From Candidatus Omnitrophota bacterium (GTDB lineage: Bacteria; Omnitrophota; Gorgyraeia; Gygaellales; Profunditerraquicolaceae): a DNA stretch of 64,000 nt. This document shows positions 3 to 64,000 of this stretch, piece by piece. The position numbers were made by a program, and so were the translations under genes. The notes under the pieces are model-generated. The model did no database searches. It had not been told where the DNA came from and saw only the letters and a program-made list of their open reading frames with translations. The stretch's first letter is position 1; each line of letters starts with the position of its first letter. Location of the stretch: the NCBI GenBank assembly GCA_028717245.1, contig JAQUOD010000002.1, positions 140,772 to 204,771 of the forward strand, written 5' to 3'.

Positions 3-3000
3 AGGGGTATAAGGCTTGAAGAAGATTACCTGGCGGTATTATCTGAATTACATAAGTTACATTTCAGCGATTTTGATACCCAACTTTTTACTGTAGAAGG
101 AAAGCATTATCAGGCGCACGAGAAACTCGGCGCGCATGTCGTTAAGACAGGAGACTGCGCCATAGGTACTTATTTTGCGGTATGGGCTCCTAATGCCCTG
201 GAAGTTTCAGTGATAGGTGATTTTAATAAATGGAACCCAACATCAAATTATATGTACCGGGTGAATTCAAACGGTATATGGGCGCTGTTTATCCCGGGGG
301 TCAAAGAAGGCGATCTCTATAAGTTTTCCGTCAAAGGGTGTGACGAGGTAATCCGTAAAAAGATTGACCCTTATGCGTTCTTTAATCAGTTTCCTACTAA
401 TGAACATCAACTTAGTAATGCATCGATTGTCGGGAGTTTGGGTTATTCTTGGAAGGATGATGCCTGGGTTAATGAGCGTTTATCTAATCAGGGGCCTGAT
501 AAGCCCATTTCCATTTATGAAGTCCATCTGGGTTCCTGGCAGCGCAAAAAAGAAGATAATAGTTGGTTGACTTATAGAGAGTTAGCAGAAAAGCTCGCAG
601 AATATGTTAAGGATATGGGATTTACTCATGTAGAGCTTCTCCCTGTCAGCGAACATCTCTTTTACGGTTCATGGGGATACCAGACAAGCGGCTGCTTTGC
701 TCCCAGTTCACGTTACGGCACGCCCCAGGATTTTATGTACCTGGTTGATTATCTCCATCAGAAGGGGATAGGCGTCATTATTGACTGGGTGCCGGCGCAC
801 TTTCCCAAAGATGAAGCTGGACTTGTAGCATTCGATGGCACAGAATTATATTCTCATAAAAATCCTTTAGAAGGGGAACATCCTGATTGGGGTACGCGGA
901 TATTTAATTATGGGCGTGCCGAGGTAAAGAGCTTCCTTATCAGCAATGCTCTTTTCTGGCTTAAAGAATACCATATTGACGGGTTACGGGTAGACGCGGT
1001 GGCATCAATGTTGTACCGCGATTATGGACGTAAAGAAGGAGAGTGGATTCCTAATAAAGATGGCGGGAGAGAGAATTTTGAGGTAGTAGCGTTCTTGAAA
1101 GAGCTCAACGAAGTAACCCATAGAGAGTGTCCGGCTATCCTGACCATTGCTGAAGAATCTACTGACTGGCAGGGAGTTTCGCGTCCCACAGATGGGGGAG
1201 GTTTAGGGTTTTCTCTGAAATGGGCAATGGGATGGATGCATGATACGTTAGAATATTTTAGACACGACCCTATACATAGACAGTACCATCAAAAAGAATT
1301 GACTTTTTATCCTTGGTATGCTTTTTCTGAGAATTTTACTTTAGTTTTATCTCACGATGAGGTAGTGCATGGTAAAGGCTCATTAATAGAAAAGATGCCC
1401 GGAGATTACTGGCAGAAATTTGCCAATTTGAGATTGCTCTTAGGCTTGATGTTTGCTATGCCCGGGAAAAAACTTTTATTTATGGGGGATGAGATTGGGC
1501 AACATAGAGAGTGGAACCATGACGGAAGCGTTGATTGGTATGTTCTCGATAAAAAAGACGAACATTCAAATATGCATAGAGGCGTACAGAATCTCGTAAA
1601 AGCCTTGAACCAATTATATCAAAGCGAACCGGCGCTTCACCAGCGTGATTTTGAATCTTCCGGTTTTGAATGGATTGATTTTAAGGATGCCAAACAAAGC
1701 GTAATCAGTTTTATCCGTAGAGGCAACAACCCTGACGAATCTGTTGTGGTAGTTTTCAATATGACTCCCGAGCCGCGATATAATTACCATATCGGCGTTC
1801 CTTGCGGAGGAGTTTGGCGCGAAGTTCTTAACAGCGATGCTAACGAGTATGGCGGTAGCGGTATGGGTAATCATGGGGTAGTAGATGCCACAAGTGAGCC
1901 GATGCACAATCGCCCCTATTCTTTAAATCTTACCTTGCCGCCCTTGGGAATGCTTATATTAAAAGTTAATAACCAAGCCTCCTCCGCCACTACAAAAGTA
2001 CAGGAGGATTCAAGAACTCCCCAGGATAGATTTAGAGAATTTTTAGGGACCAAACCAGAAGAATTTAATCTATGCGAGGCCTTAAAGCGATTTGGATTGA
2101 GTTTGGAAGAAGGAGTTGGTATTTTACAAAAGGTAAAATATGATTTTGGCGAGTATCTTGAAGTTTTGGACGAGAACGGAAAGTCAACCGGAAGAATGAA
2201 ACAGAGAGGCGCCATCCATGAGCAAGGCGATTGGCACAGGACAGCGCATATAATTATTATAAATAAGAAGGGTGAGGTTTTGCTTGGAGTTAGAGGCAAA
2301 AAAGCGCATAGTTCCCAGGGCAAGATTGATATATCCTGCGCCGGCCACGTTGCCATAGAAGACGGCAGGGATACTGCTTTTGAAGAAATCAAAGGCGAAT
2401 TAGTGATAGATAAAAATGAATTGTCCGAATTATCTGTTATCGGGCAGGAGAACGGATTCAAGAAGATAGGCGCTCTGCAACAGGAAGAAAAGATTGATGC
2501 CTGCGGGGTTTATTATTACCGGACAGCCGGGATAAATAAAGAATTTTCTACTCTTTATGTTGCCATAACAGATCTAACTGCCGATGAGATTAACGCGAGA
2601 TTACGCAAGCAAGGGGAAAATCGCGCGGTCGAAACAGTTTACTATGCCAATATAGAAAAAGAAGTTAAAGATCCAAACAAAGACTACAGTATCTATAGCA
2701 GCACTTTTAAGCAATATTTCTTAAATAGGGCAATATTGGATAAGATAATTGTTTTCACTAACGACGGCTCAGCGGACACCGCCTTAGAACAAGCTAAACA
2801 TAAGGCGTGGGGAATATATATTGAAATAAGAAAGCAAAATAAAGTTACATTCAAAGATGGCCGTGAATTCGAGGCTTTCGCCCATCAGATAGCCAATGAG
2901 GTGGGTGTAGAATTTGGATTAGATGCGAATCAGATAATAAAAGTTGCCCTTTTCTTAACTACTGCTTTCTTCCCGGGATGGGGCGGCCTGCCGGCACCAA

Positions 3001-6000
3001 TGCCTAATCCATCATATAAGAGCTTAGGATCCCTTGATTATAAGAAGCTTGTAGAACAGGCCTTAGGCGCCGGCACGTCACTAGAAACATTCGAAGGTAT
3101 TATGGCAATTCTAGAAAAGTTTGGAGATAGAATGATACGGGCTTATATTTTAACATACGCCAAATCCAAGTTGTCTAATAATGGAAGGCTCGTTGTCCAG
3201 ATAAGGGCGGAGGAAATTATACGTGCCATGGAAGCGCCTCATAAAAATAATAACAATGGCTATTATAATAGGAGAAAGAGAGAAGAAGAACGGCAAAGAA
3301 AAATACCTGATGTTATCGATAAAAAGGGTCTTCTTAGCAGAATGGTTGGCCGGTTGAAGAAAGCAAGCCCCGAAGAAACAGCGCAGATAAAGAAAAAATT
3401 AATTGAAGCCAGCAAAGATGATGCGGATGCGGTTATCGGTCCTGTTGTCGGCGCCTTTGTTGATCCTGAAATAAAATGTGCCGAAGAAATCCTCTTTGGT
3501 ATCCTGGATACAACCAAAGACCCGGCTAAAGTTTTCAATCGTGTTGTCCGCGCCTTGCATGAACGCAAAACAGATTCGGGTAAAACCCTATACCTCTGGC
3601 AGGGGCAGTGGTATGAGCCTACTCCGGAGGAAGCATTACAGCGGATAAGGCGCTTAGAAGAGTTTATTCGAAAAGCTGGTAAGCAGCATCCGGTAGAGGC
3701 CGGCAATGCGCTTGTCGGCGCATTGGCTGATTCTGACCCGCAGGCAGTGCTTTCAGCAGAAGAACTTCTTTTGGGTATAACAGAAGTATTCCCGGGAACA
3801 ACTGACAGGCAGCGTATCGTTATTTTTCTTCACTCTGTTAGAGTAGCTTTGGCAATAAGAATATTTACGAAGATAGCTAAAGAAAAGCCGTCGGAAGTTA
3901 AAGACGTACTGACCAGAATTTTCGAGGATAGGCATAATTCAATAAAGGCCAGAAACAGCGCCTTTGAAATCTTAAAGGCATTGAATGAAACGTCCATTCC
4001 GGCTGGCGCGATGAATGGTGGAATAGGGCAACAGCCGGTTGGCGCAAGCAACCCTACTCCCTTCTCCCGCCCTGTCTCTAAGGAAGCCCAGGAGCAGGCA
4101 GAGAAACTCTATGGCAAGAACTGGACATCTAAAGCGTTTACCCTTGATGACCTCCGGAATAATATTCTTGTCCAGGGGCTGACTAAAGATAATGCAGAAG
4201 GATTAATAAAGCAGATAAATGAAGTATCAGAAAACATCACTAAGACAGGCCCTCCGGAAGATTTAGCTAAAACCAAGGAAGCCTTAACGCAAATAAGGTT
4301 CTATCTCTCCAATGACACGGAAAAACTTGAGAAATACCCTGGAACAGATCTTCCTAATGTTGCCTCTTCCATAATTGATTCAAAAGAGGTTTATCTACAC
4401 GTTATAGGTTACTGGCAACAGCCCGACCAGCAAACAATTCTCCACCACGAAATCAAAAGCCACATCGCTGACAATGAGGCGGATGAAACTAAGGCGATGA
4501 AGGATACGCAGAGGTACTACCCCAGAGTAGTAAAGATTGAACCTTCTATACTTGATGTATCAGACGAGGAATTTGAAACCAAGGTTCGCCAAGCAGTGCT
4601 TGCCGGAGCAGACCAGCTACATACTGATTGGACGGATATTGAATTTACAAAACGGCCAACTGATATAGAGAATCTTACATCCAAGGTTAGATTCCTTAAG
4701 AAAAATTTTAACTTGCCGGTAGATGCCCATTTAATGGTGGTGGTAGATAAGCCCGAAGAGAATACCTATATTAACGCGGCTATCAATGCCGGCGCGGATA
4801 TTATTATTGTGCATTTTAAGGACGCCCATCGGGATTTAGAGCACCTTAAAGAGACTATCGCATATATTAAGTCAAAAGGCCGTAAGGTGGGCATAGCGCT
4901 TAAAATACCCGAACCCATTAAGGAAATAAAAGAGATTCTTCCCCAGATTGACACGGTCCTCTTATTGGCAGTAGACCCGGGTTATGGCGGGAGCCCATTT
5001 GATATAAGCGTATTGGGTAAAATTAAGAAACTAAGAAAGTTTATAGATGCAAAACACTTGAAGGTTGAAATTCAGGTAGATGGCGGCATTAGGCCCGCGA
5101 TTGCCGAAATAGTTTTTGATGCCGGAGCGGATATTTTAATTTCTGGTTCCGCCATATTTAAAGCAGAGGATATTTGTCAGGCCATTACGAACTTAAGAAT
5201 CTATTCGTCTAGAGAGCGCCTGATACGATATTTACGCCGTTACAAACCGGGCGCGGCAATACCTCTTCAAGAGGTTTCCCGGGCCATAGGTATTACACTT
5301 CAACAGATAGAGCCGCTTTTAGACGCCATTATTGATGAGCAGCCCGGTAAGTATATAGTTAAAAGGCAGGATGGCGGATATGCAGTTCCTCGCGGTTTAG
5401 GTTGTGCCTCGCCGAGAGAATTTGAAAACTCTGATAAGCAGCTACCTTATCGTGTTTTTACCGGAAGATATGCCCGGTATACAAATGTGGATACGACACA
5501 ATTTGAGCAGATTATATTAGGGTTATTTAAAGTCAAGGCGTTATCTGAGTTATCCCGGGAAGTCCAAAGAGAAGTATGGCGATTTAAACAGGCTTTACCC
5601 GAAATAGAAGATGTCCATTTTCAGGCAAGGGGTACCGCCGATATTATGGGAGGCGTATTGAATTGTGAAATTTGGGATCCCATGGTACCCCCAATTTTAC
5701 ATAAATATCAGTTAAAAGCAAGGTTAATCCGGCGTGAAAAAATGAAAATTCCCAGATGGGCGCTTAATGATTACCATCAATATACAATTACCGAAGTAGG
5801 CGGGCACGAACTTATTGTTAATGTTACAGCTGACCAATATGAGTTTAAAGATAGCGGCGCATTTGGGGCAGCCGCATATTATGACTTGGGCGTGGTGGTT
5901 ATACCGATAGAGGCGTTAGAAGATGGAACTTTATTTATGTATGCAACAGGCTTTCCCCGCGAAATACCTATGGAGGGAGTAAAAATTTCTTCTGATCCGA

Positions 6001-9000
6001 AAGACCGGGTCCAAGAGATTAGTCCTAATCTTATTGGTCCGCTTAGCATCGAACAGCAAAGAGACATCGTTGATTATGTCCTGCAAGAGGCGCAGCCGCA
6101 GATATCTTTTGACCAGGTTATTCCAGTGCGGGAAAAACAGGCTTATAAAAAATTATTTGCCAGATACGAAGGATATAAAGCGAGATTAGAAATAGACCAG
6201 ACTGTCCCGCTACCTAAATATTATTATGTATATTATGCTAATAATCCGGTAGGTGGTTTAAGAGTAAATTTAGAAAGTAGAAGTATTGATTCTAAATGGT
6301 TTGATGTAGGCACAAAAGGCGTCTTCTGTAATGATTATCTTCCCGCAATAGCTACTACAGGAAGGTTTGTCCCTGAATATGTCTGTGTGCTTATGGCCTT
6401 GCCTTCAGATATTGAATCGGCTGTAAGGCCAGAGATATGGGAGGTAATAGAAAATAAAGGGAATAATATCATTTTTCGTAAGGATGTGCCTTTTGATTAT
6501 AACCAAATAATACTTATAATAGACGAAGAGCGCATAGGCCGGGATGAACTTAATCAATTAAAGGAGTTCGTCGATAAATATAAGCTAACCCTCATCAGCC
6601 TTCAAGAGGCACAATTGGAGGCAGAACTGCTTTTTGAAGCGCGCAAACTCTACGACCGTGCCAGTCTCATTGCAGAAGGAAGGTTAACCTTAGATGAAAT
6701 CAGGATTTATGACAGGCCGGATAATATGGTTGAGTTTTATGAAGATTTACGGCCCGGAGATATAGTAGCACTTACCGATAACGAAGCGTATAGAGAAGCA
6801 TTCAAATTAAAAGTTTACGGCTATATTACCGAAGAAAGAGGAGATAAGTATGTGAATTTCTATCACCATCGCCTGGGTAGAATGCAAAGGAAGAAAATTG
6901 ATATTCCCGATAAGGTCTTGGGGAGGGATTATTCTCCTTGGTTTGGCATATATGCTACGGAGTATAAAAGTTATGACCTTTATCTAATCCGGCCTACTAA
7001 CGTGGTAATTCCCCTTGAGTTTTTATCTTATCTACATTTTTATGAAATCCTTGCTTCTGAGGAATATTCCTTGAAATTAAGCTTAACCCCTAAGTTACCC
7101 AGTAAGGGCATAAACTATTTAGATACCCTGTTTTCTCTACCTGAAGAGACGATAAGTGTGGCCTTAGAGTATTATAAAGAGGCAATAAGGATTATGGCGC
7201 TTCCTGAGCCCGAAGAGTATATTTACCGCCTGAGTCGTGAGCCTACTCCTAAAAACGTACGATTGCTATTACAAATTACCCGGATAATTCTTTATGAAAA
7301 AAGCCCTGATTTAGTACCTCAGGAAGTTATAAGCATGCTTCACAATGTAGCTGAATATAAAATTAAAGAAATTCCGTTTAGCTATAGAGATTGGGCTAGA
7401 TACATATTAGAGGCAATTGAAGGCAGAAGAAATGGGGGTACTGCTGGCTTTATGGATGATTCACTTCAGCCCTCCCTCGTGGCAAAGTACATTAAGGATA
7501 TAAAATATACTCCCTTACGGCTACTCTTGCAAGTATTCTTCGCGCCTGCCATTGTCCCCCATGAAATTGCGCATCTGCTCAGGGCTATTAAAAGGAAAGA
7601 ATTAAAGGGATTCAGGCCAAGGCATCTACTGGAAGGCATCCCTATCTTAAAAACCGGCCTGCCCATCTTGAGACTAGAAGGCTGGATTACCAATATCGTA
7701 TTGGCCGCTATATCTCTCATAGTATTATGCCATGCCCCTGCCTTAATTATTATCTGGATATTTCTTACCAACTTATTTCTCACCATATTTGAGCCATTAT
7801 TAAGTTTCAAAAATAATGAAGGCGATTTTATTTCGGAAAAAAAGAAAGGGCTTTCGAATCCATTTATTGCCGGCTGCCTGTTGCTTTTTATTCCGGTGGT
7901 TTCCGGATTTATCATAAATTCATGCAGTATTTTAAATATCGAATCTTACTTTTTCATAATTGGTTTAGTTTTATTAGTTGCGATTCTGGCGATTTTCATT
8001 CTTAATTACCCGGATAAATGGTGGTCGGATTTTAATGCCCCCTCCGCCAGAGAACACAAAACCCTTAATTTATATAAGAAACGCATTATGGAAACGGTCT
8101 TGCATTGGGCTGAAATGTTATTGCTATCCGACCAAAGTCCGCTTGTAGTACGTGGTGCCATCACAGACTTATCTGACTTCGTTGTTGAAAATAAAAATGA
8201 AATCGAATCCTCAGAGTTTATTAAGCGTTTAATTGAAGAAGTAAAGGATTTAGGTTGGCTTACCTATAATGCCATGGTTTCCGCCTTAGAAAAATTAGGC
8301 GCTACCAAAGAAGAGTGGTTGGATTTTTGCGAGATTAAAAATGTAAAAAGCATAGATAAGCTTACTTACAACGCCATAAAAGGCCTATTAGTAAAGTTAG
8401 GCGCTAACGAAGAACAGATGGCATATTTTTATAATCAGGCAAAAGCGGTTGGTTCAGATGCGCAAACCCGTCAAGCCGCTGAAGGATCATTGATAGAGAT
8501 TATCAATTCAACTTCTAATAATGGATTATTGCTGAGATTATTATCGTTAAATGAAGGGGAGGATGATTTTAAAGTTAACCGGGCTATACGTAGGGCGCTG
8601 GATTTGTTAGCAGCCCAGGCAGTACTCAAGCGAGGGTATCCTGAAGGGGCCATACCAGCCATATCAGAAGAACTCAAGAAATTACTCTCTGAAATAGGCC
8701 CTTCTTTGAGCCAAGGTTTAAGGCTAGAGAATACTGAACTATTAAAGGAAAATCTCCGGAAATTATGCTCATTAATTACTGAGAAAGGCCATATAAATGT
8801 TAATTCTCCCAGCCCATTGATTAGGCTTCTGGTGACCAGCCTGAATAAGGAAGATGTCTTTAAAGTAATAGACCAGGCTGTCTCCATTGAGAAGAAACGG
8901 GAATTAAAAAAGATTCTGGTAAGCTGTGTTGCAGTTTCCCAACTAACTTATATCATCTTAGCCTTATTGGGTCTTGAGGTAAAAGGCGTTATTGCGCCTA

Positions 9001-12000
9001 TGCACGCTTTTACCTTAATCCCTCTTTCTGGTGGAAGGGTTTTATTTGTAGATTTTAGTCTCAAGCTGATTTTAGAGATAGATCTTCTAGAACATTATCA
9101 AGAAGAAGGAGAAGGCAAATACCTGGTTCTAAAACCAGAATACCGCATTACTCCTGAAAGATTACTTGAGCTTCAGAGGCAAAAAGAGCAAGGAATCTTT
9201 AGATACGATAGATTAACAGAAGAAGAACTATTTAGCCTCTTCTATTCTTATATACAGATAACCGATGGTTATGCCTTAACTTCTGCTATGTATAACAACC
9301 TCGGTAACACCTACGCTAAATTAGGCAGATATGCTGAGGCAATAGCAGAATATCAAGCGGCCTTAAGGCTCAATCCTAACTATGCTGCAGCCCACAACAA
9401 CCTCGGTGGCACATATTTTATATTAGGCCAGTATGCTGAGGCAATAGCAGAACATCAAGCGGCCTTAAGGCTCAATCCTAACTATGCTGCAGCCCACAAC
9501 AACCTCGGTCGGATCTACTTTGGATTAGGTAGATATCCTGAGGCAATTGACAGTTTGGCAAGAGCAGTTAACTTACGCCCAGAATTAATAGATAATCTTC
9601 GCAAGATAGAAAGCGTAAGGCAACTGGTAAAGGCGAGGGCAGAGGAGTTAGCTAAAGAAAACAATCATGGCCTTGCCTCCGCAGCCCAGGCAGCGATAGA
9701 GGAGGAGGATAACCCCAGCCGCACAGGAGAGTCCGAATCCCCCCAGCGTGGCGAGCGGGGAGATTTTACCAAAGAACAGATATTAAACATCCGCCAAAAA
9801 ACTATTGCCATTGCTGAAGGAAAAATGCAGATAGTGGAAATGCCCTGGGTAAATATGACTTTAAAGGAACGGCGCGATTCCTTCAAGGAGCGGCTCTCCA
9901 GAGAGGCTCCTGCCAGAGACCCGCCTTTAGCCGTTGGCCATATTGAAGTCCTGGCTGTTGCTGAAGAAGATAATTTCCGCGCCATGGCACTCGATATTAA
10001 CGGTGAGTGCGTCCTTCTCCTTACCAAAGAAACCTACCTAAAAGAATTTTCCGAAAAAACCCTCGACCACGAAGTATTGGAGTATTGCCTGGGTGACCAT
10101 AATAAAGCAGTAGCCTTAGTTAAGAAAGAAGAAAAAGAAGAAAACTTCATCCAGCGCCTAAAGCAAACCTTAGATAGCAGTGATATCCAGAATCTGCCCA
10201 AGGTATACCAGGCTTTGGATAAAGACCCGGAATTATTAAGCCTTAAGGCTGATCGTGCCAGGCAGCTATATAAACATTTTGATGATTTAGGTAATGAAGT
10301 ATATAACCAAGGCCGGGAAGAAGAGGCTATCTCCTGCTATAAGTTAGCTATCCTCTTTGCCAGGCGTGCCGGCGCCTTATTTGTGCACCGTAATGAAAAG
10401 CAGTGGATAGGCGATATCAGCCTTTTAGGAGGCAAGATCTCTAACTCTTTGGATATGATGACTGGGAATTTGGAGGTTCCGCCCTTCTTTGGGACAACCA
10501 GCGTCCTGCAGAAATACCTCTGGCTGTATAACCAGCTGTTGAAGCCGATGCGCGAGATTGCTTTTGACGTAGATGCCCAGTATGACGTGGATATCTCTAC
10601 TGCCGAGGGCCGGATGAAGGATATGGTTAACAACGCTAATTTTTCCGAGGACACAGCAGAGGCTATGTGGGAAGAATTAAAGGCCATTGCCGCTGCCGAG
10701 GGATTAGATCCGATCGAGCTTGTTGAATTTATCTTCAGAAGTTCGCAGGGTTTAGAGGATTTGCCGGGCATACCTTCTGCGGGTATCGGCGATAGCATTC
10801 CGGTGCTGGGCAGGATTGAAGATGCAATTAATGTATTTAAGCAGGTTGCCGGCTCCACTTACAATAAGCGGGCATTCCAGTACCGCGATAAGGTAGCTGT
10901 CTTCAGGTGGTTGATGTATGAAACGACCCTTAAGGATTTAGAATATCTGATAGAGACCATCGAAGAACTGAATAAAGAGGTTAAGCGATTTGAGGTTGCG
11001 GGCATCACCAGGGATATTGAGCCCATATTAAAGGATTTAAAAGAGAATATCTCGCCGATAAAACGCGAAAGAAAACAAATGTGTTATGTTTCCTCAAGGC
11101 GCATATTGGCATTATTAGAACTGGCCAAGGGACGTTATCCTGAGAGGCGTTTTCTTGTTCAGATGATTTCTTCCTTAGAAAAAATAAGGACAGAGAGCCT
11201 GGATCCGGTAAGGATCGGCGGCGGTATACAGGTGCAGTTGATGCGCTCCAGCGAAGTATCCTTTGTTGGTTTTACGGTGAACAAGATAACCGGTTGGACT
11301 GGTTTTAGCAATGGCCTGGCAATTGTGGATTTTGATGTAGCCTATGGCCGGGGGGAGAATATTGTCCAGGGCCGCATTATCACTGACCACTACAAGATAG
11401 CCATTAACCCTCAAACAAAAGCTGTGGTTATCCTGAATAAGACCTGCGGTTCTAAGATAGCTATGCTTAAGCGTGGTGAACCGGGGCAAAAGTATCTGGC
11501 CTGGAAGGATATAAAAAATGGCATTACCGAGGAGATTACTGCCCAGTTAGGAAAGGAATACAATATGGTTACTCCGGAAGAGATGCGCAATAAATTCGTC
11601 ATCTCTGATGAAGAGGCAAAAGACTTTGCCTTCAGGGCCTACAGGACGTACCAGGTGCATAATAGGAATAGGCCCCAAACACCCATTCCTGTAGATTTAG
11701 AGGCTTGCCTCTATCGTGATGCGCGAGGCAAGAGGCAGTATTCTATCGTGCAGAAGAGAGACTCTGCCTTAAGGAACGGTTTTGATTTTGAGGACCCGGA
11801 TATTCTGGAATTAGTGATGCGCGAGGTTGTTGCTTCTGATGCTGAAGAGGCCCAGGCAGAAGGCCGGCTGGTTGGCCGGGGTTTTGAGACGCTCAATGCT
11901 GCTGCGGGCACCTCTTTTTGGGTAGAAGAAATCTCCACAGAAAGGATAAGAACTGCTTTGCTCCAGATTTGGGAGGAAGGTAAAGACGAATCTGCGATTG

Positions 12001-15000
12001 AAGATTTAATCCCGGAAGGCTTCTCTCAACTGTCTGAAAAAGAGCTCCTGATTTTAAGTAAGAACCTAACGCAAAATAAGGGTTCTCTCTCTGAAGAAGA
12101 GCAGATCGCCTTGATTAAAGAGAAAAAGGCGGTTAAGGGGCTTTATGCAAAAGAGGAGCTTTCAACTTTAGTTAATCGTATAAGGAGGCTGCAGGAGTTG
12201 GCTGAATCAGGGATCCAGCAGGACTTTGATGTTGAAGGGCTGCAAAGAGAATTAGCCAAGGATACAGCCGGCATAATCAGTAAAGGAGAGCCTTTAAGTG
12301 AAACAGAAAGGCTGACCCGCAAAGTCTTGGTTGATGCTGCGATAACACAAACTAGTATAGAACGTATTATTCAGGGCATAGAAAAGCTCTATAAATTTGA
12401 GGCTGATGCTGACGGCAGGCTGAATTTATTCTCTTTAATCATCAGGTTGAATCTTTTCAGCAAACCCAAGGGAGATTTAAAGAGTGCCTCCCTGGAAGAA
12501 GAGACAGCTAAATTATCCCGCCAGCTTTTAGACCGGCAATTTGAGATAGTCAAGTCTTTTGATAATGTTATTCTGGTTGCGCCGGAGACCAACCCTAATT
12601 TTAATGATATTATGCAGTTGGTAGATACCAAGGGCGGCGCTACTGTCACCTTGCAGGGGGGCCCGGGAGCGCACGCGATTATTATTGCCACTCAGTTTGG
12701 TTATTGTGTAGTAGGCGGGGTACAATTTGCCGATCCTAAGATATTAGATAGGATCAGGAATGGCGAAAGGCTGCCCTTGACCGTAGACGGCAACAAGGGC
12801 CTTGTTTATTCAGGGAAGTTAGGTATTTCCGAGTTCTCTATCCTGAATCAGGTAAGCCGCTGGGGGAATTTCGGCAAAGAGATCGGATTGATTACTAATG
12901 CCACCAATGAATTAGAAAAGGCCGCAAAGCTTGCCAGGTACCAGGTCGTTGTCAACAAAGAAAGATATCCTTATATGCACGAGGATAAGGTAGGCGCCTA
13001 TATGGTCAGCTTGGACAGGATTGAGGAGATATTATTGCTTTTAGGTATTGACTTCAGGGCAGCATTTGCCTATGGCAGGCTACAGGCTTTAGAAAGAGGC
13101 GAGCTAAAGGAACTTGATTTAAACCAGCAGCAGCTAAATGATGTTGAGAAGATGCGCGCCAGAAAGGATGTCCAGGAGAAGATCAGAAACAAAATACCCG
13201 GCTTTGCTACGCCGGTTGAGTTCTTGCGCAAGTCCCTAAGTTACCACTTCTTACAGATGGTTTCGGTAACCCGGCCGGGCCAGATAGTTCAGGTCAGGGA
13301 AAGAGACTTTAAGAAAAGAGAAATTAATAAGACCCAGATTGGCGCTGAGCTCTATTATAACGATGAAGAAGCCTCTATGATTGGTGACCGCGGCAGCGGC
13401 CTTGAAGTAAGGGATGAGAATATCGAGGCGCTGGACCTTCAGCTTATGGCTGTCTCTGATGCCATAAAAGAGGCTAAAAAATTAGGCAATGTAGGAGATA
13501 TTGGCTTTATGTTTGTATTTAACCGCAAGATAGATGATTTTAAGAAGGCCCTGGGGAGAATAATTGATCTTTACGATAAAGGGATATTAGAAGAAGTGCC
13601 TAAGCAGGTAGGGGCGATGTTTGAACTAGGGATTAATGCCATATTGGCTGACCGGCTAATGCAGGCCCTGCTTGATTTCCAAAGAGAAATGCGTAAACGG
13701 GGAATAGAGCTAAAAGTTTACATCTCTCACGGCACAAATGACCAGACCCAGTCTGTTAAAGGCAGCAGGGATGAGGTCCGTTACATAGCTATAGATGCGT
13801 TCCTTCCTGGCGGAAAGAGAATAAAGGATATCCGCACCTTTTATGAGGGCGACAAAGGGTTGGTGGATAATGTAAAACATGGCAATGCCGTAGCAAGCAA
13901 AATGGGCGTTAAAAGTGGCCTTTGCGGTGAGGCGCAAAATAGCCTGATTACCCGCGGTAGCCCTGATGCCTTAGATGCCTGTTCAGACATAGCCAGCGGC
14001 CTTGATTCTGTTGGCGGCAGCGTGAAAAACTATTCCAAGCTGGTAAAATTATACGCGGATATGCAACTAAGCCGGCAGTCTATCCCTGAGGCAGTGATAA
14101 GGAGAGCAAAGGTTATTGCCAAGGGTATATCTTTGTTTAATAAAGGCGCTGATGTAAGAAGGGTTGTGTTTATCAGGGATTTGAATGATTTATTTAAAGA
14201 GCATATTATCTTAAGAGATGGCGCAAAACGTAAAGAGACGCGTAAGATCTCCAGGGTAGTGGAAGGGGATATTATGATTGTTGCCAGCGGCATTAACAGC
14301 GATAATCCGGACTTCCTTAAAGCCTTAAATCGCCGCGATGGCTATGCCAGCGGCATGGTTATTACAGGGCAGATAGAAGACAACAGCCCTCTCCTTTACA
14401 AGGCGAGGCAGTTAGGCATACCCACCATGCTCGTAGAAGAGGATTTATTTAATAATAAATTAAAGGATGGCCGGGAATGTGCTTTTGATTTCCAGCGCGG
14501 CCTGATCTGTGAGGTTGAGGGCATCAGTTTTGATATTGCGCCTCTGGTTGACGACACAGCTTACACGACTATAAATTGGAGCGCAGAACCGGCCACAATT
14601 AATACGAAATCTTTCTCTATGGATGAGATATACCGGGAAATAGGCCTGCATCCTTTGGCATTACTGCTCTATGCTTATCATACCGGCGAAATCCCCAACC
14701 CCCTCATAGAAACACGGCCTGACGGTGTTCAGGTAACCAAACTTGACCTTATCTTCTCGCAGCATAAAATACCTCTTCCTCGAGAAAAGCTCCCGGAAGT
14801 CTATGCTGATGTAAAAGAGCGCCTCAAGGATTATCAGGTAACCAGCGTAAGAGAATTATTAACCAAAGTATTCCTGGCACAATGCAATGCCGCTAAAGAA
14901 TCATTAGGTAAAGATACCCGTTTGGTATTTGAAACCTCTAAAGCTGATGTCTGGTTTTTTGAGACGCTTAAATGGGGTAAGCGCGAGACTGAACTTGAGC

Positions 15001-18000
15001 TGAATGTATTTAACGTGCCCATAGACTTAAGGGGCCTCTTAAAGACTATCTCTCTTGGCTATGGTGATTTGTTTAATATCTTCCTTGAGTTGGTTCAAGA
15101 GCAGCGCGAGGAAGGCAATGATATCGCCATCCAGCTGGATTATGTCCAGGACCCCGAGAAACTGGATTTGGCCTTAGAGTTCCTTAAATATTACGGCCTT
15201 ACCTCTAATATAGGTATGGAAATAGCCACTACCCATAACTTCGTCCGCGCAGCGGATTACTTTACTAAAAGCAGGCTGATTGAATTTGTAAGTTTTAATG
15301 ATGACCTTTTACTGATGAACTTTGCCTTAGCTAATTTAGACCATCATACTGATGTCCTGCTCTGGACCGGCCAGATGGTTCCCCTTATTGACAAGAATGA
15401 AAAAGATTTCCAGGATGCTTTAAAGATAGCCAGGGCAATGGTCAAGACAGCTATGGTAGATAGAGGAATATTATCAGCTCTGCCTGTTGAAGTTCCGAAG
15501 CGGAATAAGGAAGAGGGTGGTCAAACTAAAACTAATAAAAACCTCTCCAAAGGACTGACTCCAAAGGATGAAATTCCTATCAGGCAGGCAATAGAGTTAG
15601 CTTTTGCGCAAGGAAGAGTAGAGGAACCGAGCCAGAGAATGAAAGAAGTTTTTTGTCAGTATGCGCAAGATTTGCGCAAGCGAAGAGAGGAGGGCTCGGC
15701 GAGATTGCTGGAGAGGGCAGAATTTAGATTGGTTGAGCAGCCGAAATCAGAAATCAAATCCCGTTCCCCGCCTTATTGCCTCTGGTATAAATCCCCCGAG
15801 AAATTTCTCGTAGCTTGTGTCTATGAATATGAAGGAAATAAAATCATCCTCCTGCCTTCTTATTTAGTAGAACTCCTCCTATACCACAAAGAAATAGATT
15901 TACTTATCCGGATTTTATCCCACGAAGCAAGGCATATCTATAGGCCTTTTACATCAGATCAAGAACACAATCAAGATGTAGAAGATATACTTATTAAGTT
16001 AGAAGAATTAGAGAAGAGGCTAAAAGTCATAAGCCCGGATTATCAAGGCGGACTTTTAGAGATAATTTCAGGGCAGAGCCGCCTTATCCAGGCAGCGCCT
16101 GAAGGCCGCGCAGGAGAAGAGCTGGCCGTAATACTGGCAAACACCCTGTTAAACAAAGAAGCCACATTTAGAGCGCGAAAAGAAGCAGCAGAGGGATTAG
16201 CTAAGTTAGACCCTCAAATTACATTATCTGTTTTTAGAGCAGTATTAAGCGATGGGTTCACGGCCTCGCCTTTATGCCAGATATTAATTGAGCTTACGGC
16301 AGGGATTGGCAGCGCCGAGGCGGTTGAATTAATCATAGATGTATTAAATCATAGCAGTTGCCTGTTGGTTAGAAAAGAGGCAATTTTGTTGCTGGAGAGG
16401 TTTAATGATGAGAGGATTTATCCGGCGCTATTGCCTTTTCTTAAAACAGGAGGCGATATTCTCTTTGAAACCGCCGCGGGTGTGCTTTACGCGTATAAAA
16501 AGAAGAATCCAGCAGCATTTAGAGAGTTGGAGGAAAACAGTTTTAGTATTGTCTTCCTAAATCATCCTAATCCGGGTTATATGGATGCCCGTCAGTTACT
16601 TACCGAAACAGAAAGGGTTTTAGAGAGTGTGGGACTGTCCTTCTTTTTGAGTAATGGGCGCGAATACAGGTTTGATTATGTAAGGTCCATATTCATAGAT
16701 TTAGGATTTGAGATAACAGCGCAATATTTTGGCAGGGATATACCCGCCAGCTATCCGTTAGCAGCAACCGCAGGCCAAATAATTGAACTATACGGCCGAG
16801 AGGAACTTTATCTGATAGTTGCCAGAAAAAATGGACTGCCGCATCGCCTCGCACCTTTAAAAGTGCAGGATGCTCAACCTTCCGTGGCTGGTGGGGGGCA
16901 TTTAGGCGGTGCGGCAGTTATTTCGGCTCAAGGGCCGTTCTTTGACAATGGTGGAGGCGTTAATAAAACAGCCGAAACCTTAGAAAACCCCGGACCCTTA
17001 AGTTTAGAGTCAAAGGTAAAAAAATATGCCATAGATTTATGCTCTATTGATGAGGCCGTCCACTCCGGGGCATTAAGAGCCCTGGTGGAGATGGGAAGCA
17101 TAGCTGTTCCTTACCTGATTAAGATATTAAGAGATACTGACTGGTATCATGAGAATAACTTTCACATCCGCTTATATGTAAAAGAGGCCTTAGAAAAGAT
17201 TGGCTCACCGGCTATCCTTTACCTGATTGAGGCATTAGAAGACAGCCACAGCGATGTCCGCTCTGACGCAGCCGACGTCTTAGAAAAACTCCATGCCTTA
17301 ACCGTAGAATTAAAGATGAAAAGATACATTGTAGATTTAAGCGATAATGACAGCAGTGTCCGTGCCCAAGCAGCTGAAGCTATGGGTGATATGGGCCTGC
17401 CTGCCGTTCTCCTCTACCTGATGAAGGCGCTAAAAGATAGTGATATTTATGTCTGTTACAAAGCAGCCGAAGCCTTAGGAAAAATCGGGCCTGCGGCTGC
17501 ACCAGCTGTTTCTGCGTTGATTGAGGCCTTAAAAGCAAAAGAGAAGGAGTATAGTTGGTATCTGCGTTCCTACGCAGCCCAAGCTTTAGGAGAAATCGGC
17601 ATAGCCTCTATGCCTGTTATCGATGCCTTGACGGAAGCCGTAGAAGATAGTAACAGCGATGTCCGCGCCAAGGCCTGCACAGCCTTAGAAAAACTCAATG
17701 CCTTAACCGTAGAATTAAAGATAAAAAGATACATTTTGGATTTACGCGATAATATCTCCGGTTCAGCCCAAGCTTTAGGAGAAATCGGACTCCCGGCTCT
17801 CTTCGCTTTAGTTGAGGTATTAGAAGATAAAAATCTTAACAGCAATGTCCGTGCCCGGGCAGTTGAAGCCATAGGGTATATGGGCCCGCCTGCTGTCCAC
17901 TACCTGAAGAAGGCATTAAAAGATAGTGACGCGAATGTCTATTACAAAGCAGCCGAAGCCTTAGGAAAAATCGGGCCTGCGGCTGCATCTGCTGTCCGCC

Positions 18001-21000
18001 GGCTGGTTAAGTTATTAAAAGCAAAAAATATTTACTGGGCTATCCGTTCCTACGCAGCCCAAGCCTTAGGAGAAATCGGCATAGCCTCTATGCCTGTTAT
18101 CGATGCCTTGACGGAAGCCGTAGAAGATAGTAACAGCGATGTCCGCGCCAAGGCCTGCACAGCCTTAGAAAAACTCAATGCCTTAACCGTAGAATTAAAG
18201 ATAAAAAGATACATTCTGGATTTAGGCGATATTGACCCATATACCCGTTCCTACGCAGCCGAGGCCTTAGGGGAAATCGGGCCTGCGGCCGCGCCAGCAA
18301 TCCTTCATCTGATTAAGTTATTAGGAGATAGCCATAGCGATGTTTACTATAGAGTAGTCAAAGCCTTAGGAAAAATCGGGCTGCCGGCTGTGCTTGCTTT
18401 AATCGGGATTTTAGAAGATAGAAGTAAAGACAGCAATAGCCGCGGCCAAGCAGCCAAAGCCTTGGGAGAAATCGGCCTACCAATAGCCGCACCCGCTCTC
18501 CCTTACCTGATTAAGGCATTAGAAGATAGTGACAGCAATGTCTCTTCTAAAGCTGCTGAGGCCCTGCTAAAAATCGGACTACCAGTTAAAACCGCGTCCT
18601 CCACTTTGCTTAAGATAGCAGAAGATAGCCATATTGATAGCGATGTCCGCTCAAGGGCCGCTGACGCCTTAATAAAAATGGGCCTTTTTAGAGGGGTTAC
18701 TTATAGCGTATCCTCTATAAATAATCTTTTATCCCATGTTACCTTAGGAGGCAAATTGTATGCCGGCGAAGACCCGGACAGGTTTATTTTTAATCCTACC
18801 ATATCTGCCCAAGAATTAGCCGGTCAGATAAAAGCAAAGATAAGCAAAAGAGGCGAACTGCAGGTGTCCGTAGGTTTTGATACAGGAGAAGGCATCTACA
18901 AACACCGGGCTAAGTTTATTGCTCTCGCTTTATTCATTGCCTCTACTAACCTTAAGAATAAGAATTTCCGGGCATTAAAGAGCGTTACCCCAAGAGATCC
19001 CGATGCAGCCTGTGGCCTTATTATTAGAGGCAAAAATGTAAGTCCGGTAAACGAGATTAACGTTCAGGAGCACCGCATTGACTATATCTTGCAAATATCC
19101 AAAGATATAACCAAAGAAAACCTGGCCTATTTTATTTCCTTTATCCAGTACCTTAACTTAGGGCTTCTGCTTACTGTTGCTCACAGGAGCTATGCCCGGT
19201 TAATGGATAAAGGGTTTCCCGGGATACCTCCCCAACACCTCGCCATTATTGAGGCATACGAAGGCTTTGAAGCGGCTCTGGTGAAGCTCTTGAGAAGATA
19301 CGATTCTTTGGTTAGCCCTGATTCGATCAGAGAGATAGAAGACCAAGAAGAAGAACACAAGGAGAGGGTGCAGGCCTTATTAAAATACCTGTTAGAAGAG
19401 TGCCTCTGGCCGGATAAGATATGGTTAGTGGACTTACACCAGAAGGATACCTCCTGGAATATCCTCTTACCTTACTTAAGAGCCCCTGAGGCAGTCTTCT
19501 TACACCGGGAAGCAGAAGAGGGCGAGCTGCCTATAGGCGATAAATTTATCCGGGAGGCCCGCCAGCTCCTCTTTAATAAGGCCCTTGAGATTAAGGATAT
19601 CTTGGAAGTAAAGAGAAGCCTCTCTAGTTATCCCGCCAGTTTAAGCCCGGAGAGAGACCCCTTCCTGGATTTAGCTTATCCTGAACAGAGCGCCAGATAC
19701 GCTAAGGCAATGAAGTCTTTAATCGCACGAGGGAGATTTAACGAAAATATGCTCTCTGTTGCGCCTGCATGGATTGAATCTTTTGTTCCGGAAGAGAAAC
19801 TCTCTTGGGATAACGGCGGCTCTCCTGAAATTGCCCCGTATAATACTAGAAAGGAAACTACTCCCAGAAGAGAGCCTGCAGAGGTACCCGAGAGAGTTGC
19901 CCCTCGGCCTAAGCCTCAGCCCCTGCCTCAACCTCAAAAGGAACCAGCTACTCCAAAAATACCTGAAAAAGTGAGGGTTCCGTTTCTCAACAAGAGCCTT
20001 TCTTATTCACCACCTCAGACAATTAAATTCATCTTCCTGCATGAAAATAGTATTTTATCTCCGGCCCATAGTATACCTGTTCAGATAGAAAAAGCCTTGC
20101 CTCTTAAAATTATTTCTCCCGAAGGCCTCTTCTTACGAAAATTCAATTTAAAGGCAATTAGGAAAAATCAATACCTTGTGGATGACTTATATGGATTAGC
20201 ACAAAAAATTAAATCCGCATCCGGGGAAGAGATAATCTTCTTAATTACAGACGCAGATATTACGGGTTATCGCGATGGCGAGTTACGCCGGTATCTTTTT
20301 GGCCGCAGCTGGCCCGAAGACAAAGTTACAGTTATGTCCGTAAACCGCCCGTATTCACCCGATGAAAAGCTTTACGGGGAGCGTATCCTAAAGAATGCCC
20401 TGCACGAATTAGGGCATGCATTCGGCCTTAGGCATTGCGATAACCCCGGATGCGTAATGCAATTCTCCGAGACGGTAGAGGCCTTAGATAAAACAGGCTT
20501 AGAATTCTGCCCTTCTTGCAGAAGCAGGCTGGCATCTCCTCAGTTAATTGCAGCCTCTTTCGACAATGGCGGAACATCTCTTATTTTTCACGCCAAACGT
20601 AAGCCCGGGTTTACCAAAAACCAAGTAAACAGAGAGATAAGAAAGATACTAAAATCAGAACTCAAGGGATGGCAGGCGGCGGGTATGGATGAGCCTTATG
20701 TAATAGCTGCTTTAAGGCATTTTATTCTGAAAGGCGAGCAGGCCCAGTTATTTGAAATGCTTGTTAATGCAGGAAGGCTTATGAGAGGAGAGGCAAAAAC
20801 CTTTTTTGGGAATACGATAACCTACCAGGGCAATAAATATATGCCTATAGCCGATGATGACCCTGATCCTGCTTCGACCATAGTGCACGAAATGGAACAC
20901 CTCTCGGGAGTTATTGATGAAGGCAAATGCGTGCAAGCAGAAAAAGAATTCAGGGAGCGTAGGGATATGGTTGCCTATGGGTATCCGGCGCATAAACATT

Positions 21001-24000
21001 TTAAAGACAGAAGTTTTATAGGCCATGGGTTAATGCGGAGTATGATAATAGACCTTAGCGCGAAATTCAGCAGTATAGATAGGCTTGTTGCCGGCCCATC
21101 CTTAAAGAAAATTATGATTATTGCTTCGGATACGCCTTATGCGCCGATTTATATCTCAAGTATTTTACAAAGTAAATTAGGTAAGGGTATTGAGGAAATA
21201 TCGCTATTGTCTGAATACCGCTACTTAGGATTAAAAGGAGAAGAGTGCCTCAGCGAATTTATTAACCAGATTAGAGCAGCAGACCTTTGGGATTTACCCC
21301 AGCAGATACAAGGTATTTATCAGGGGTTAGAGAGTAGAATACCCGCGATGTTAGCGAAAAGTAAGATTAGTTTTGTGACGCAGGCTGCTAAAGGCGAATT
21401 TGATTTTGTATTTATGCCAGCCTCGCCCGCGCCGCAAGAGTTAGAGAAGGTCAAGGCAGCCCTACGTGAAGGAGGCATATTCGCAGAAGATAGCGGGACG
21501 GATATCTGCCTATTTAAGAAAGCCAAGGGAGAGCTAGTTAACGTCTATCACATAAATGAAAAACCAGACTACAAGAATAAATTGACCCTTTGGGATTTAC
21601 GCAATACTCCTAATGCCTGGTTAGGGGCAGAGAATGTCATGGTGGATGTTGAGAATAAATGGCTTAATAAATTAAGTTTTGAATTAGAATCGGTTTTTGC
21701 TGCCGAAAGGCCTGAGAGGGCATCACATCACGGTCTGTCACATTCTTCGCGGATGTGGGAGAAAGCCAAGATTCTGATTGAGCGGCTCAGATTAAATGTG
21801 GATATTGAAGTTTTAATTGCGGCGGTATTCTTACATGATATAGCCACAGCTTATAGCGATGAGCCACAACATGGAGAAATCAGCGCGCAAAAGGCTGAGC
21901 CAATCTTAAGAAAAATCGGGTTCCCCGAGGAAAAGATACTCGCTGTCTTAGAAGCAATTAGGCTGCACGATGCTTACGAGGCAAAGAGGCAAACGCCAGA
22001 GGCTAAGATTTTATTTGATGTTGACGAAATTGATGCTTTCGGCGTAATAGGTATCTGGAGATATCTGATGATTTATTATGACCGTGGCTGGGACTTAAAC
22101 CGGATGGCCACTCATATAGTTAATAATATCCAAGTAAGATTTAATAATTTGCATTTCGCAGAATCCCGCTCTATGTGTAAAGTGGATTATGAGTATGCTT
22201 TAGGATATTTTGAAAAACTATGCGCAGAACTAAAGTCCGGCTATGATATACAAAGCCCATTCGGAGCAGTCGGTATTTATAATCTCCTTGTTCAATATAA
22301 AACCTCTTCCTTTAAAGATACGCCCGCTTTAGCAAACAAGGAGCTTTCAAGTGAATTTAATACGTTAAGCCCAGAAAAGCAAGAAGCAAATAGGGACGGT
22401 TTTACTTTCGCTGTGGAATATCTTGACAGATTTTTAAAAAATAATGCAGGATCCGTAAATGCTACAGCTTTATCTTATGCTGAAGACGGCGCGCCTAAGA
22501 AGAGATCCGAAGACCAGCGAGGCTCTTTAGCAGGTACGTCACCTAAAATTATTATTGCGATCGCACTGGCTGCGGTTGGCGCCACACTCGCCGCCGTTTT
22601 CCTGCCGGGCTACGAGAAAGAAATCGCCGTCATAGCGCCCCTGCTTATGTTGCTGGGGATAATAAAATCAAGGAATTTTATTCTCAAAGAAGATTTTCGA
22701 TCCATTAATATCGGCGCACAGATAAATTCTTCAATATCCGCGTTCATCTGGCAGCTCATTAGCAAACACCTTAAGAATATCGATGAAAAACAGGAACTTG
22801 AATTACTGGAGAAGCTGGACAGCTTCATCGACAACCTTGTGAAATTGAATATTATTATGATTGGCGGCATGGGTAGCGGAACGCACTCAGTACCAATTAA
22901 TATTCATAACATAGTTATCGTTGATATTCGCGCCTTGCAAATGGACACTTTTGGAAACTTCAGGGTAGCCCTGAGCAATGGACAGAGTGCTGAAGACCTT
23001 ACGGTCCTGCAGAAGATAATGAGAAAGCTCTTAGATATTCAGGACAAGGTCGAACTGCTTAAGTACAAATGCATGCTGGAGGCGCCTATTTTACTTACTG
23101 GCCGCGGCAGAATCGAAGAAGATATGATCGAATACGAATCTGAACAGGCAATTGCTCAACTGGTAGAATCATTTATCGATGTTGAATATCCTGTCATGCT
23201 TATCCATGAACTGAGATATCTTTATTTCCTTATCGATTCCTGGAAAGGTTCTACGAACAAGGCAAGCACCGGGAAATCTATCCTGGCTCTTTTGGCAAAA
23301 CTGGAACAGGAAATTAAGCAAAAACTGCAAACGGTGGCTAACAAAGAAAACCGGGCTTTGACAATTCAAGATCAGGATATGCCCATCGGTATGAAAAAAG
23401 ATCTTGAACAGGCGCTGGTTGAACTTTACAAACTAAAGGAATTAGCTGAAAATCTGAAGGTTGAGCAGCCTTCCACCATTGAAACCGGCATCAAAAATGA
23501 TCTTCCGAAGATCTTGATAGGTAGAATGTTCAATGTCATCAGTTCGCTGAAAGAACGTTTCCGTATTAGCCCCTATGCATCATCCAAAGAAGAAGCCGCG
23601 GGAAAAATTATTGATTACTCAAACGATAACAGGCAGGATATACTTTCAAAACTCGACGATCTGGATCGGTCAATTAATATACTGGCGAGTGCCGGGGCGG
23701 ACGATAATTTTGTTTTATCTGAACATCTGGCAGATCTCACGCGGCAATTAAGTGAAACGTTCATTACGGCAATGGCTCTGCACAACCTGGAAAAAGCTCT
23801 GAGGGCCATTGAAGGAATCTTCAGAAAGATTATTACCCTTGAAGAAAAGGCGCGGAAACTGGGAAAAGACAGGGATACAACAAGGTTTGCTCCTAATGTA
23901 GATATTATCAGCAATATCGACAACCTCCTGCCGCTAATCGATCATCCGATAGTAATGGTGGGCATCCTGGATTATTTTAACCGGTATGTTGCCTTTAACC

Positions 24001-63998: not shown

Positions 63999-64000
63999 TT

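Follow-up and report, generated by a model that had tools for sequence, protein, structure and literature searches.

The 64,000-nucleotide (nt) stretch analysed here (the window), taken from contig JAQUOD010000002.1 of a Candidatus Omnitrophota bacterium, is the interior of a single giant open reading frame (ORF), and five HExxH motifs, a pattern known from zincin proteases, are encoded in it. These motifs are heterogeneous. HELGH is the active site of a genuine, complete archaemetzincin (peptidase M54) domain, HEIAH is, by sequence comparison, the core of a previously undescribed module that recurs in giant ORFs, and the remaining three are HEARH, HEMEH and HEEAH. An initial annotation of the same DNA had proposed a self-processing polyprotein that is cut into functional units by embedded zincins. 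Our preferred reading, to which we give as a whole a probability of about 0.6, is that the ORF consists of gene-sized cassettes fused in frame and belongs to the multi-enzyme giant-protein type of Omnitrophota. The M54 domain would then be one more captured enzyme, a zinc peptidase, and not a dedicated polyprotein-maturation protease; if processing occurs, the recurring module at HEIAH and an internal lipobox would be better candidates for it than M54.

The giant ORF and its archaemetzincin domain

On the forward strand, the frame that begins at nt 3 is without stops for 63,997 nt (21,332 codons), and each of the remaining five frames contains 656-1,973 stops. Since this frame is free of stops across the 64,000 nt, the window is an interior piece of a single ORF, which is open at both window ends and encodes at least 21,332 amino acid residues (aa). 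The GC (guanine plus cytosine) content is even along the window (0.39-0.46) and the GC skew is positive nearly throughout. Tiling of the ORF with Pfam gave, in order, a GlgB-like branching enzyme (CBM48, alpha-amylase and C-terminal domains), ribulose-phosphate 3-epimerase (Rpe) and a TPR array; a PPDK-like enzyme (PPDK_N, PEP-utilizers, PEP-utilizers_C), a long HEAT array, Peptidase_M54 and HD; enolase-like and iPGM domains, GNAT, CheR-type and further methyltransferases and a HAD domain; and, in the last part, GerE/LuxR helix-turn-helix (HTH) arrays, a second TPR array, a metallo-beta-lactamase domain and HTH_3. The initial annotation had described the product as made of normally independent enzymes and transcription-factor domains, and the tiling bears this out. 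The Rpe and enolase-like cassettes retain their hallmark catalytic motifs in alignments to solved enzymes, and the cassettes are therefore seemingly undecayed. Rpe together with about 400 aa downstream of it (aa ~1510-2360, nt ~4530-7080) is found elsewhere as stand-alone proteins (P0041 and P0042, of 646 and 735 aa), which indicates that at least some cassettes of the giant ORF are entire multi-domain genes captured in frame. Searches of the GTDB representatives, the JGI metagenomes and a collection of 5.8 billion proteins gave no close orthologue of the giant ORF.

Giant proteins of Omnitrophota have been described previously (West-Roberts et al. 2023, bioRxiv 10.1101/2023.11.21.568195; a 2026 survey, bioRxiv 10.64898/2026.06.07.730766; Seymour et al. 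2023, PMC10066038). HEAT_2, TPR and PPDK_N are among the commonest domains of the 'Archaeovorins' (West-Roberts et al. 2023), and the 'multi-enzyme metabolic cluster' class of the 2026 survey has many distinct Pfams and from dozens to more than 100 transmembrane helices; Omnitrophota proteins of 10,000 aa or longer number 5,761 in that survey. The window ORF resembles the Omnitrophota giants in being far longer than 20 kb, in carrying many Pfams and dozens of transmembrane helices on one polypeptide, and in its poor conservation relative to other giants; HEAT_2, TPR, PPDK_N, methyltransferases, GNAT, HAD and HD are common to both. Unlike the window ORF, those giants have been discussed for their C39 and S8 peptidases and their signal peptidase II content, with no mention of M54 or zincins; within the window, Pfam tiling found no C39, S8 or SecA domain.

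The HELGH motif starts at nt 20403 and opens the segment HELGHAFGLRH (aa 6801-6811), which corresponds to HExxHxxGxxH including the catalytic Glu (E6802). The string HELGHAFGLRHCDNPGCVMQFSETVEALDKTGLEFCPSC at nt 20403-20519 fits the archaemetzincin pattern as a regular expression, and it contains the three His zinc ligands, the catalytic Glu, the Met-turn and a Cys4 zinc finger. The initial annotation had recognized this signature, with the third His, the Met-turn and two Cys pairs, at nt 20403-20525; the regular expression and the alignment described below confirmed it with a slightly earlier end. The search with a Peptidase_M54 profile that it had suggested gave a clear match to Pfam PF07998 (82.8 bits, where the gathering score is 24.4), which spans positions 43-192 of the profile's 194, and the solved archaemetzincins 3zvs, 4axq, 2x7m and 3lmc were matched at E values of about 1e-16. 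The archmetzin model of NCBIfam (NF033823) scored 103 bits, under its cut-off of 145, and the NCBIfam model 'non-proteolytic archaemetzincin-like' was also matched, at 47 bits.

We aligned the domain with its relatives (39 sequences, 25-45% identity to the window domain). All 12 invariant columns of the alignment, which include H147, E148, G150, H151, H157, a Gly and the Met, are present in the window segment, and C6812, C6817, M6819, C6836 and C6839 all fall in invariant columns. Between the Met and the third Cys the spacing equals that of A. fulgidus AmzA, because the alignment with the solved archaemetzincins is free of gaps there. The segment is co-extensive with whole stand-alone archaemetzincins and, like AfAmzA (3zvs/4axq), MkAmzA (2x7m) and 3lmc, it is a full domain that begins with the first strand and reaches the CxxC at the C terminus; unlike these stand-alone proteins of about 170-300 aa, it is embedded, about 6,700 aa in, within a protein that exceeds 21,000 aa. 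The AlphaFold2 (AF2) model built on the 39-sequence alignment had a predicted local distance difference test (pLDDT) score of 80-97 across the domain. A Foldseek search with the model returned archaemetzincins as its top five matches (E 1.7e-12 and TM-score 0.83 to 3zvs), followed by the adamalysin, fragilysin, ADAM and MMP metzincins, so that the structure prediction suggested in the initial annotation yielded the archaemetzincin fold. HELGH is thus the active site of a complete M54 domain, and the cassette looks catalytically competent from its residues and its predicted structure. To our knowledge, the physiological role of the archaemetzincin family has not been established in any organism.

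In extracellular metzincins, disulfides stand at the position of the Cys4 zinc finger (PMC3427221), which suggests that the domain resides in a reducing, cytoplasmic-type compartment. In the collection of 5.8 billion proteins, each of the 39 nearest M54 relatives is a free-standing protein, 171-297 aa long. When the stretch spanning M54 and HEMEH was used as the query, the same collection gave a single small M54 protein and no close relative, and a scan of the GTDB genomes gave no match; a metagenome scan gave one stand-alone small M54 gene (L001) and one 75-codon M54-like fragment without HExxH (L002). By local profile search, M54 is present in one copy in the window and in none of three related giant-ORF stretches. 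M54, archaemetzincin and zinc are unmentioned in the main giant-gene paper (West-Roberts et al. 2023). The single copy, the stand-alone relatives and the absence from the related giants together make the M54 domain look like one captured cassette and not like a hallmark of giant proteins.

A HExxH and transmembrane-hairpin module at HEIAH

The second motif of interest, HEIAH, is followed by four transmembrane-like helices, as the multi-helix hydrophobic segments noted in the initial annotation had indicated. An exhaustive HMMER search of 1.84 billion representative proteins with the 1,200 aa around HEIAH gave seven relatives, one of which (P0046) matches across HEIAH and the first transmembrane helices (phmmer, E 1.3e-5; BLASTP, 33% identity over 133 aa). 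P0046 comprises the first 1,875 aa encoded by an ORF that continues past the end of its contig, in a Candidatus Omnitrophota metagenome-assembled genome (MAG). A genome scan with the resulting two-sequence profile added two loci, from MAGs labelled 'uncultured bacterium' and 'uncultured Planctomycetales', which are open over all of the retrieved sequence (no fewer than 3,886 and 6,773 codons) and one of which holds the module twice; the loci L004-L006 all lie within long open frames. In total, four giant ORFs carry five copies of this module, which is about 130 aa long and unannotated. The module is nearly the sole similarity among the giant ORFs compared, and all four HExxH motifs of the related giant ORFs (12,572 aa) lie inside module copies. 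One other extended similarity was observed, between aa 20083-20505 of the window ORF (nt ~60249-61515) and aa 4816-5244 of the L006 ORF (26% identity over 447 aa, E 3e-32); this region lies in the same tile as the Pfam HTH_3 match.

All five copies share P-x-I-x-P-H-E-x-x-H closing a hydrophobic stretch, a loop with a conserved Pro at its end, a first transmembrane helix with an invariant Asn, a second one in which an Asn is likewise invariant and an acidic residue is present, and the Asp of a G/S-D pair just past the hairpin (D2621, within EGDF, in the window ORF). The Asn, Asn, Glu/Asp and Asp of the later transmembrane helices could complete a zinc site together with the HExxH, an arrangement that in its logic may recall the intramembrane and juxtamembrane zinc metalloproteases of the site-2 protease (M50) and HtpX/Ste24 (M48) families. 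The M50 family is also marked by the motif NxxPxxxLDG; unlike M50, the module has no such LDG motif, and unlike both M50 and M48 it is only about 130 aa long with two conserved transmembrane helices and is embedded in giant ORFs.

Profile searches for M50 and M48, as suggested in the initial annotation, gave no match at E<=10. No relevant family was found at this threshold for the HEIAH module in Pfam, NCBIfam, PHROGs or PADLOC, the P0046 module matched neither M50 (PF02163) nor M48 (PF01435) in Pfam and NCBIfam, and a four-sequence profile of the module gave 0 matches at E<=10 in the PDB. A profile search of the 5.8-billion-protein database found no additional members, and a Foldseek search with the low-confidence model of the HEIAH region gave no match at E<=0.001. 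The resemblance to a membrane metalloprotease that the initial annotation had seen at HEIAH therefore holds as far as a conserved HExxH-transmembrane module is concerned, whereas membership of M50 or M48 is not demonstrable, given the lack of a match in Pfam, NCBIfam and the PDB. An invariant, recurring HExxH module makes a membrane-associated metal site a reasonable idea, and we infer that the module is most likely a membrane-embedded zinc-binding site, possibly catalytic, and a candidate metallopeptidase.

Remaining HExxH motifs, the internal lipobox and other features

The features of the window are summarized in Table 1. Five HExxH sites occur in the ORF against 0.39 expected, both from its composition and from 300 shuffles (P = 6e-5 for at least five and 7e-4 for at least four), the motif having been chosen post hoc, a caveat on these P values. 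HxxxH pairs as a whole exceed expectation about 2.5-fold (12 against 4.7), Glu being second in 5 of the 12, and other patterns of this kind were near expectation (HExH 0, HxExH 1, HDxxH 1). Two side counts were made: HExxxH is likewise in excess (3 against 0.39 expected), and adjacent HH pairs number 12 against 4.7 over the whole ORF. The initial annotation had reported four HExxH sites in the ORF, and all four were located, its positions for HEIAH, HEARH and HEMEH (about 7558, 15920 and 20890) being right to within a few bases of 7560, 15921 and 20886; the four are not the total, as HEEAH lies beyond the span that it had covered.

Table 1. Features of the 64,000-nt window, with positions in nucleotides and in residues of the giant ORF
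Feature	Nucleotides	Residues	Strand	Basis and context
Giant ORF, internal part	3..64000		+	Stop-codon count, Pfam tiling, hydrophobic-segment scans
Complete archaemetzincin (peptidase M54) domain	20022..20540	6674-6846	+	Pfam, PDB, alignment, AF2, Foldseek
Archaemetzincin signature HELGHAFGLRHC-x4-C-x-M-x16-C-x2-C	20403..20519		+	Regular expression, PDB alignment, 39-sequence alignment
Conserved HExxH and transmembrane-hairpin module	7470..7922	2490-2640	+	phmmer, BLASTP, five-copy alignment
HEIAH motif, invariant module core	7560..7574	2520-2524	+	Motif scan, five-copy alignment
Four transmembrane-like helices, first two within the conserved module	7674..8003	2558-2667	+	Hydrophobic-segment scans, five-copy alignment
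HEARH motif	15921..15935	5307-5311	+	Motif scan; between PPDK-like C-terminal domain and HEAT array
HEMEH motif	20886..20900	6962-6966	+	Motif scan; about 115 aa downstream of M54 domain
HEEAH motif	38259..38273	12753-12757	+	Motif scan; about 40 aa upstream of HAD-type hydrolase domain
Lipoprotein-type signal peptide with lipobox, RPNLPQGLISLVLILFLSVSLFFSAC followed by KPVGPP	54414..54491	18138-18163	+	Regular-expression scan

Searches of Pfam, NCBIfam, PHROGs, PADLOC and the PDB gave no match for HEARH, HEMEH or HEEAH. For the HEMEH region, a word-indexed database search found no homologue, and the AF2 model had a pLDDT below 50 around the motif. The zincin identity that the initial annotation had assigned to HEARH and HEMEH thus found no backing in these searches. 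A likeness of HEMEH to DUF4157-type zincins was considered and dropped, no Pfam family being found at E<=10. The contexts of the four HExxH sites outside M54 were compared with each other and with the whole ORF by phmmer and BLASTP, and no similarity was found, which speaks against a mini-domain shared among them; a local profile search of the window detected no degenerate copies of M54 or of the HExxH-transmembrane module. In the HAD domain that follows HEEAH, FDVHGVL occupies the position of motif I (aa ~12795-12803, nt ~38370-38400). Motif I of the HAD family is usually DxDG; the second Asp may be replaced by His here, and the domain may be a variant or inactive one.

A regular-expression scan of the ORF for lipoboxes gave one match against 0.03 expected (200 shuffles). 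Downstream of this lipobox (LFFSAC, ending in C18163, then KPVGPP), a Pro/Ser/Thr linker is followed by a TPR array detected by Pfam, and a second such signal is present in a related giant ORF (aa 2992-3013 of the L005 ORF). The internal lipobox is a candidate site for processing by signal peptidase II, and its use by Lgt and this peptidase, if it occurs, would make it a genuine site of processing within the protein. The 2026 survey (bioRxiv 10.64898/2026.06.07.730766) deliberately suppressed internal signal-peptide calls, and sites of this kind would therefore have gone unreported.

Scans for hydrophobic segments indicated about 30 transmembrane-like helices in the ORF, chiefly as hairpins or four-helix clusters. 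A region of about 4,500 aa (aa 2993-7509), which holds TPR, PPDK-like, HEAT, M54, methyltransferase-like and HD domains, contains no strong transmembrane segment; two weak hydrophobic segments occur in it, inside or just past the HEAT array. Examples of hairpins are found at aa 7516/7543, 9010/9044, 10356/10389 and 11582/11607, with Lys and Arg gathered on the outer flanks, which suggests that the large soluble blocks on either side of the hairpins stay on one, positive-inside face. Isolated single helices occur at aa 2975, 10882, 14876, 15986 and 18145.

Several unannotated segments were also observed. A domain of about 165 aa is present twice in the ORF (aa 1816-1950 and 18445-18585, nt ~5448-5850 and ~55335-55755; 27% identity) and also occurs near the C-terminal part of the long proteins P0040, P0043 and P0044 (1,905-3,838 aa; E down to 1e-21). 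Internal duplications link aa 8361-8540 with 8802-8978 and aa 19642-19793 with 20801-20949 (39% and 30% identity, respectively). In the interval between HEMEH and HD, aa ~7035-7170 (nt ~21100-21520) have by eye the look of a Rossmann-type methyltransferase (FDFVFM, LREGGIF), with no confirmation by a profile.

Proposed capture of cassettes and possible maturation of the giant protein

Bacterial giant proteins reach 20,000-150,000 aa, and whether they act as single molecules or are precursors that are cut is explicitly an open question (West-Roberts et al. 2023). Proteolytic cleavage of the Omnitrophota giants was earlier proposed in the same paper for embedded C39 and S8 peptidases, so the concept of cleavage is not new; published proteomics on another giant protein did not resolve the matter (West-Roberts et al. 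2023). New here are the M54 and HExxH-transmembrane elements in giant ORFs, the giant multi-enzyme class being already known.

Self-processing in the sense of the initial annotation, in which embedded zincins cut in cis or in trans to release separate enzymes and regulators, is plausible, and we rate it as unlikely. The gene-sized cassettes with their catalytic motifs speak for it, as do the occurrence of M54 and of Rpe with its downstream region as separate genes elsewhere, the embedding of an intact protease domain, the more than ten-fold enrichment of HExxH, the recurrence of the HExxH-transmembrane module specifically in giant ORFs, the hint of at least one processing site given by the internal lipobox, the self-cleavage of the archaemetzincin AMZ-tk (PMC4681839) and the suspicion of cleavage already voiced in the field (West-Roberts et al. 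2023). However, no 4-, 5- or 6-mer exceeded its shuffle expectation outside the repeat arrays, which is a weak test because degenerate cleavage sites would escape it, and three of the five HExxH sites lack support for a protease fold. M54 is absent, moreover, from the three related giant-ORF stretches, and none of its 39 nearest relatives is a long protein; two archaeal archaemetzincins had occluded active sites and showed no activity in vitro, and the human enzymes act as aminopeptidases and not as site-specific endopeptidases (PMC3427221). Another explanation is that every HExxH besides HELGH arose by chance in a very long, helix-rich protein, a possibility that we take seriously while holding the odds to be against it. 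It is in keeping with the lack of profile, homologue or structure support for HEARH, HEMEH and HEEAH, with the general excess of HxxxH and with the post hoc motif search. For HEIAH it is refuted by the invariance of the motif in five copies across four ORFs, and at the other three sites it has to face the enrichment that is left (see below), and in the 12,572 aa of the related giants HExxH is confined to the module.

That M54 and the module are non-catalytic, zinc-stabilised structural or binding units, the intact protein being a membrane-anchored scaffold, we consider decidedly improbable. A precedent is CarG of Myxococcus, a non-proteolytic archaemetzincin-like protein without the catalytic Glu (PMC3427221), and the match to the 'non-proteolytic archaemetzincin-like' model (47 bits), the archmetzin score below its cut-off (103 against 145 bits), the two archaeal archaemetzincins without in vitro activity and the abundant HEAT and TPR scaffolding point in this direction. 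Yet M54 keeps the catalytic Glu that CarG does not have, together with the three His and the Met-turn, and the HExxH, Glu included, is invariant in all five module copies, where a purely structural zinc site would make conservation of the Glu unnecessary. Least credible, and in our view close to negligible, is that the 64-kb open frame is no real gene but an artefact, for instance of chimeric assembly or of several pseudogenes fused in a row. The 21,332 consecutive sense codons, with 656-1,973 stops in each other frame, argue against it, as do the location of every detected domain in that single frame with catalytic motifs kept, the even composition along the window, and the hundreds of similar ORFs that have been published, some of them from complete genomes and one with peptide evidence.

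Several observations weigh against our preferred reading of captured cassettes, or against parts of it. AMZ-tk shows zinc-dependent self-cleavage in vitro (PMC4681839), so that processing in cis by M54 is possible. After removal of the two explained sites, three HExxH remain against 0.39 expected (P ~0.007 by our own Poisson calculation), suggesting that not every one of HEARH, HEMEH and HEEAH is an accident and that some of these unassigned sites may be real metal sites. Zinc binding and catalysis by the HEIAH module are deduced from five sequences with no known homologue, and a single-sequence AF2 model of the region had a pLDDT of 32-41. Finally, single transmembrane helices break the hairpin pattern and with it a consistent global membrane topology.

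In flavivirus-type polyproteins, an embedded protease cuts on one side of the membrane and the host signal peptidase on the other. By analogy, the window ORF would likewise encode a long chain with transmembrane hairpins, an embedded protease domain and an internal lipobox signal; unlike those polyproteins, with which it has no homology, it differs in size by an order of magnitude and its cassettes are cellular metabolic enzymes and regulators. A bolder proposal, which we consider improbable, is that the module founds a new family of metallopeptidases that are embedded in the membrane and confined to the giant proteins of bacteria; together with signal peptidase II at lipoboxes and perhaps M54 on the cytoplasmic side, it would cut membrane-threaded mega-polyproteins into enzymes and lipoproteins. 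If true, this would be a cellular counterpart to flavivirus-style polyprotein processing.

The findings overturn nothing known and bear on the open question of giant-protein maturation. The intact M54 domain, the HExxH-transmembrane module found in giants of different lineages and the internal lipoprotein signal peptide give three mutable handles on processing, each small enough to be studied as an expressed fragment without the whole protein. Even if processing is not shown, a new conserved domain and the capture of a normally free-standing protease into a mega-protein stand; if processing proves true, polyprotein-style gene expression would be extended to cellular organisms at an unprecedented scale.

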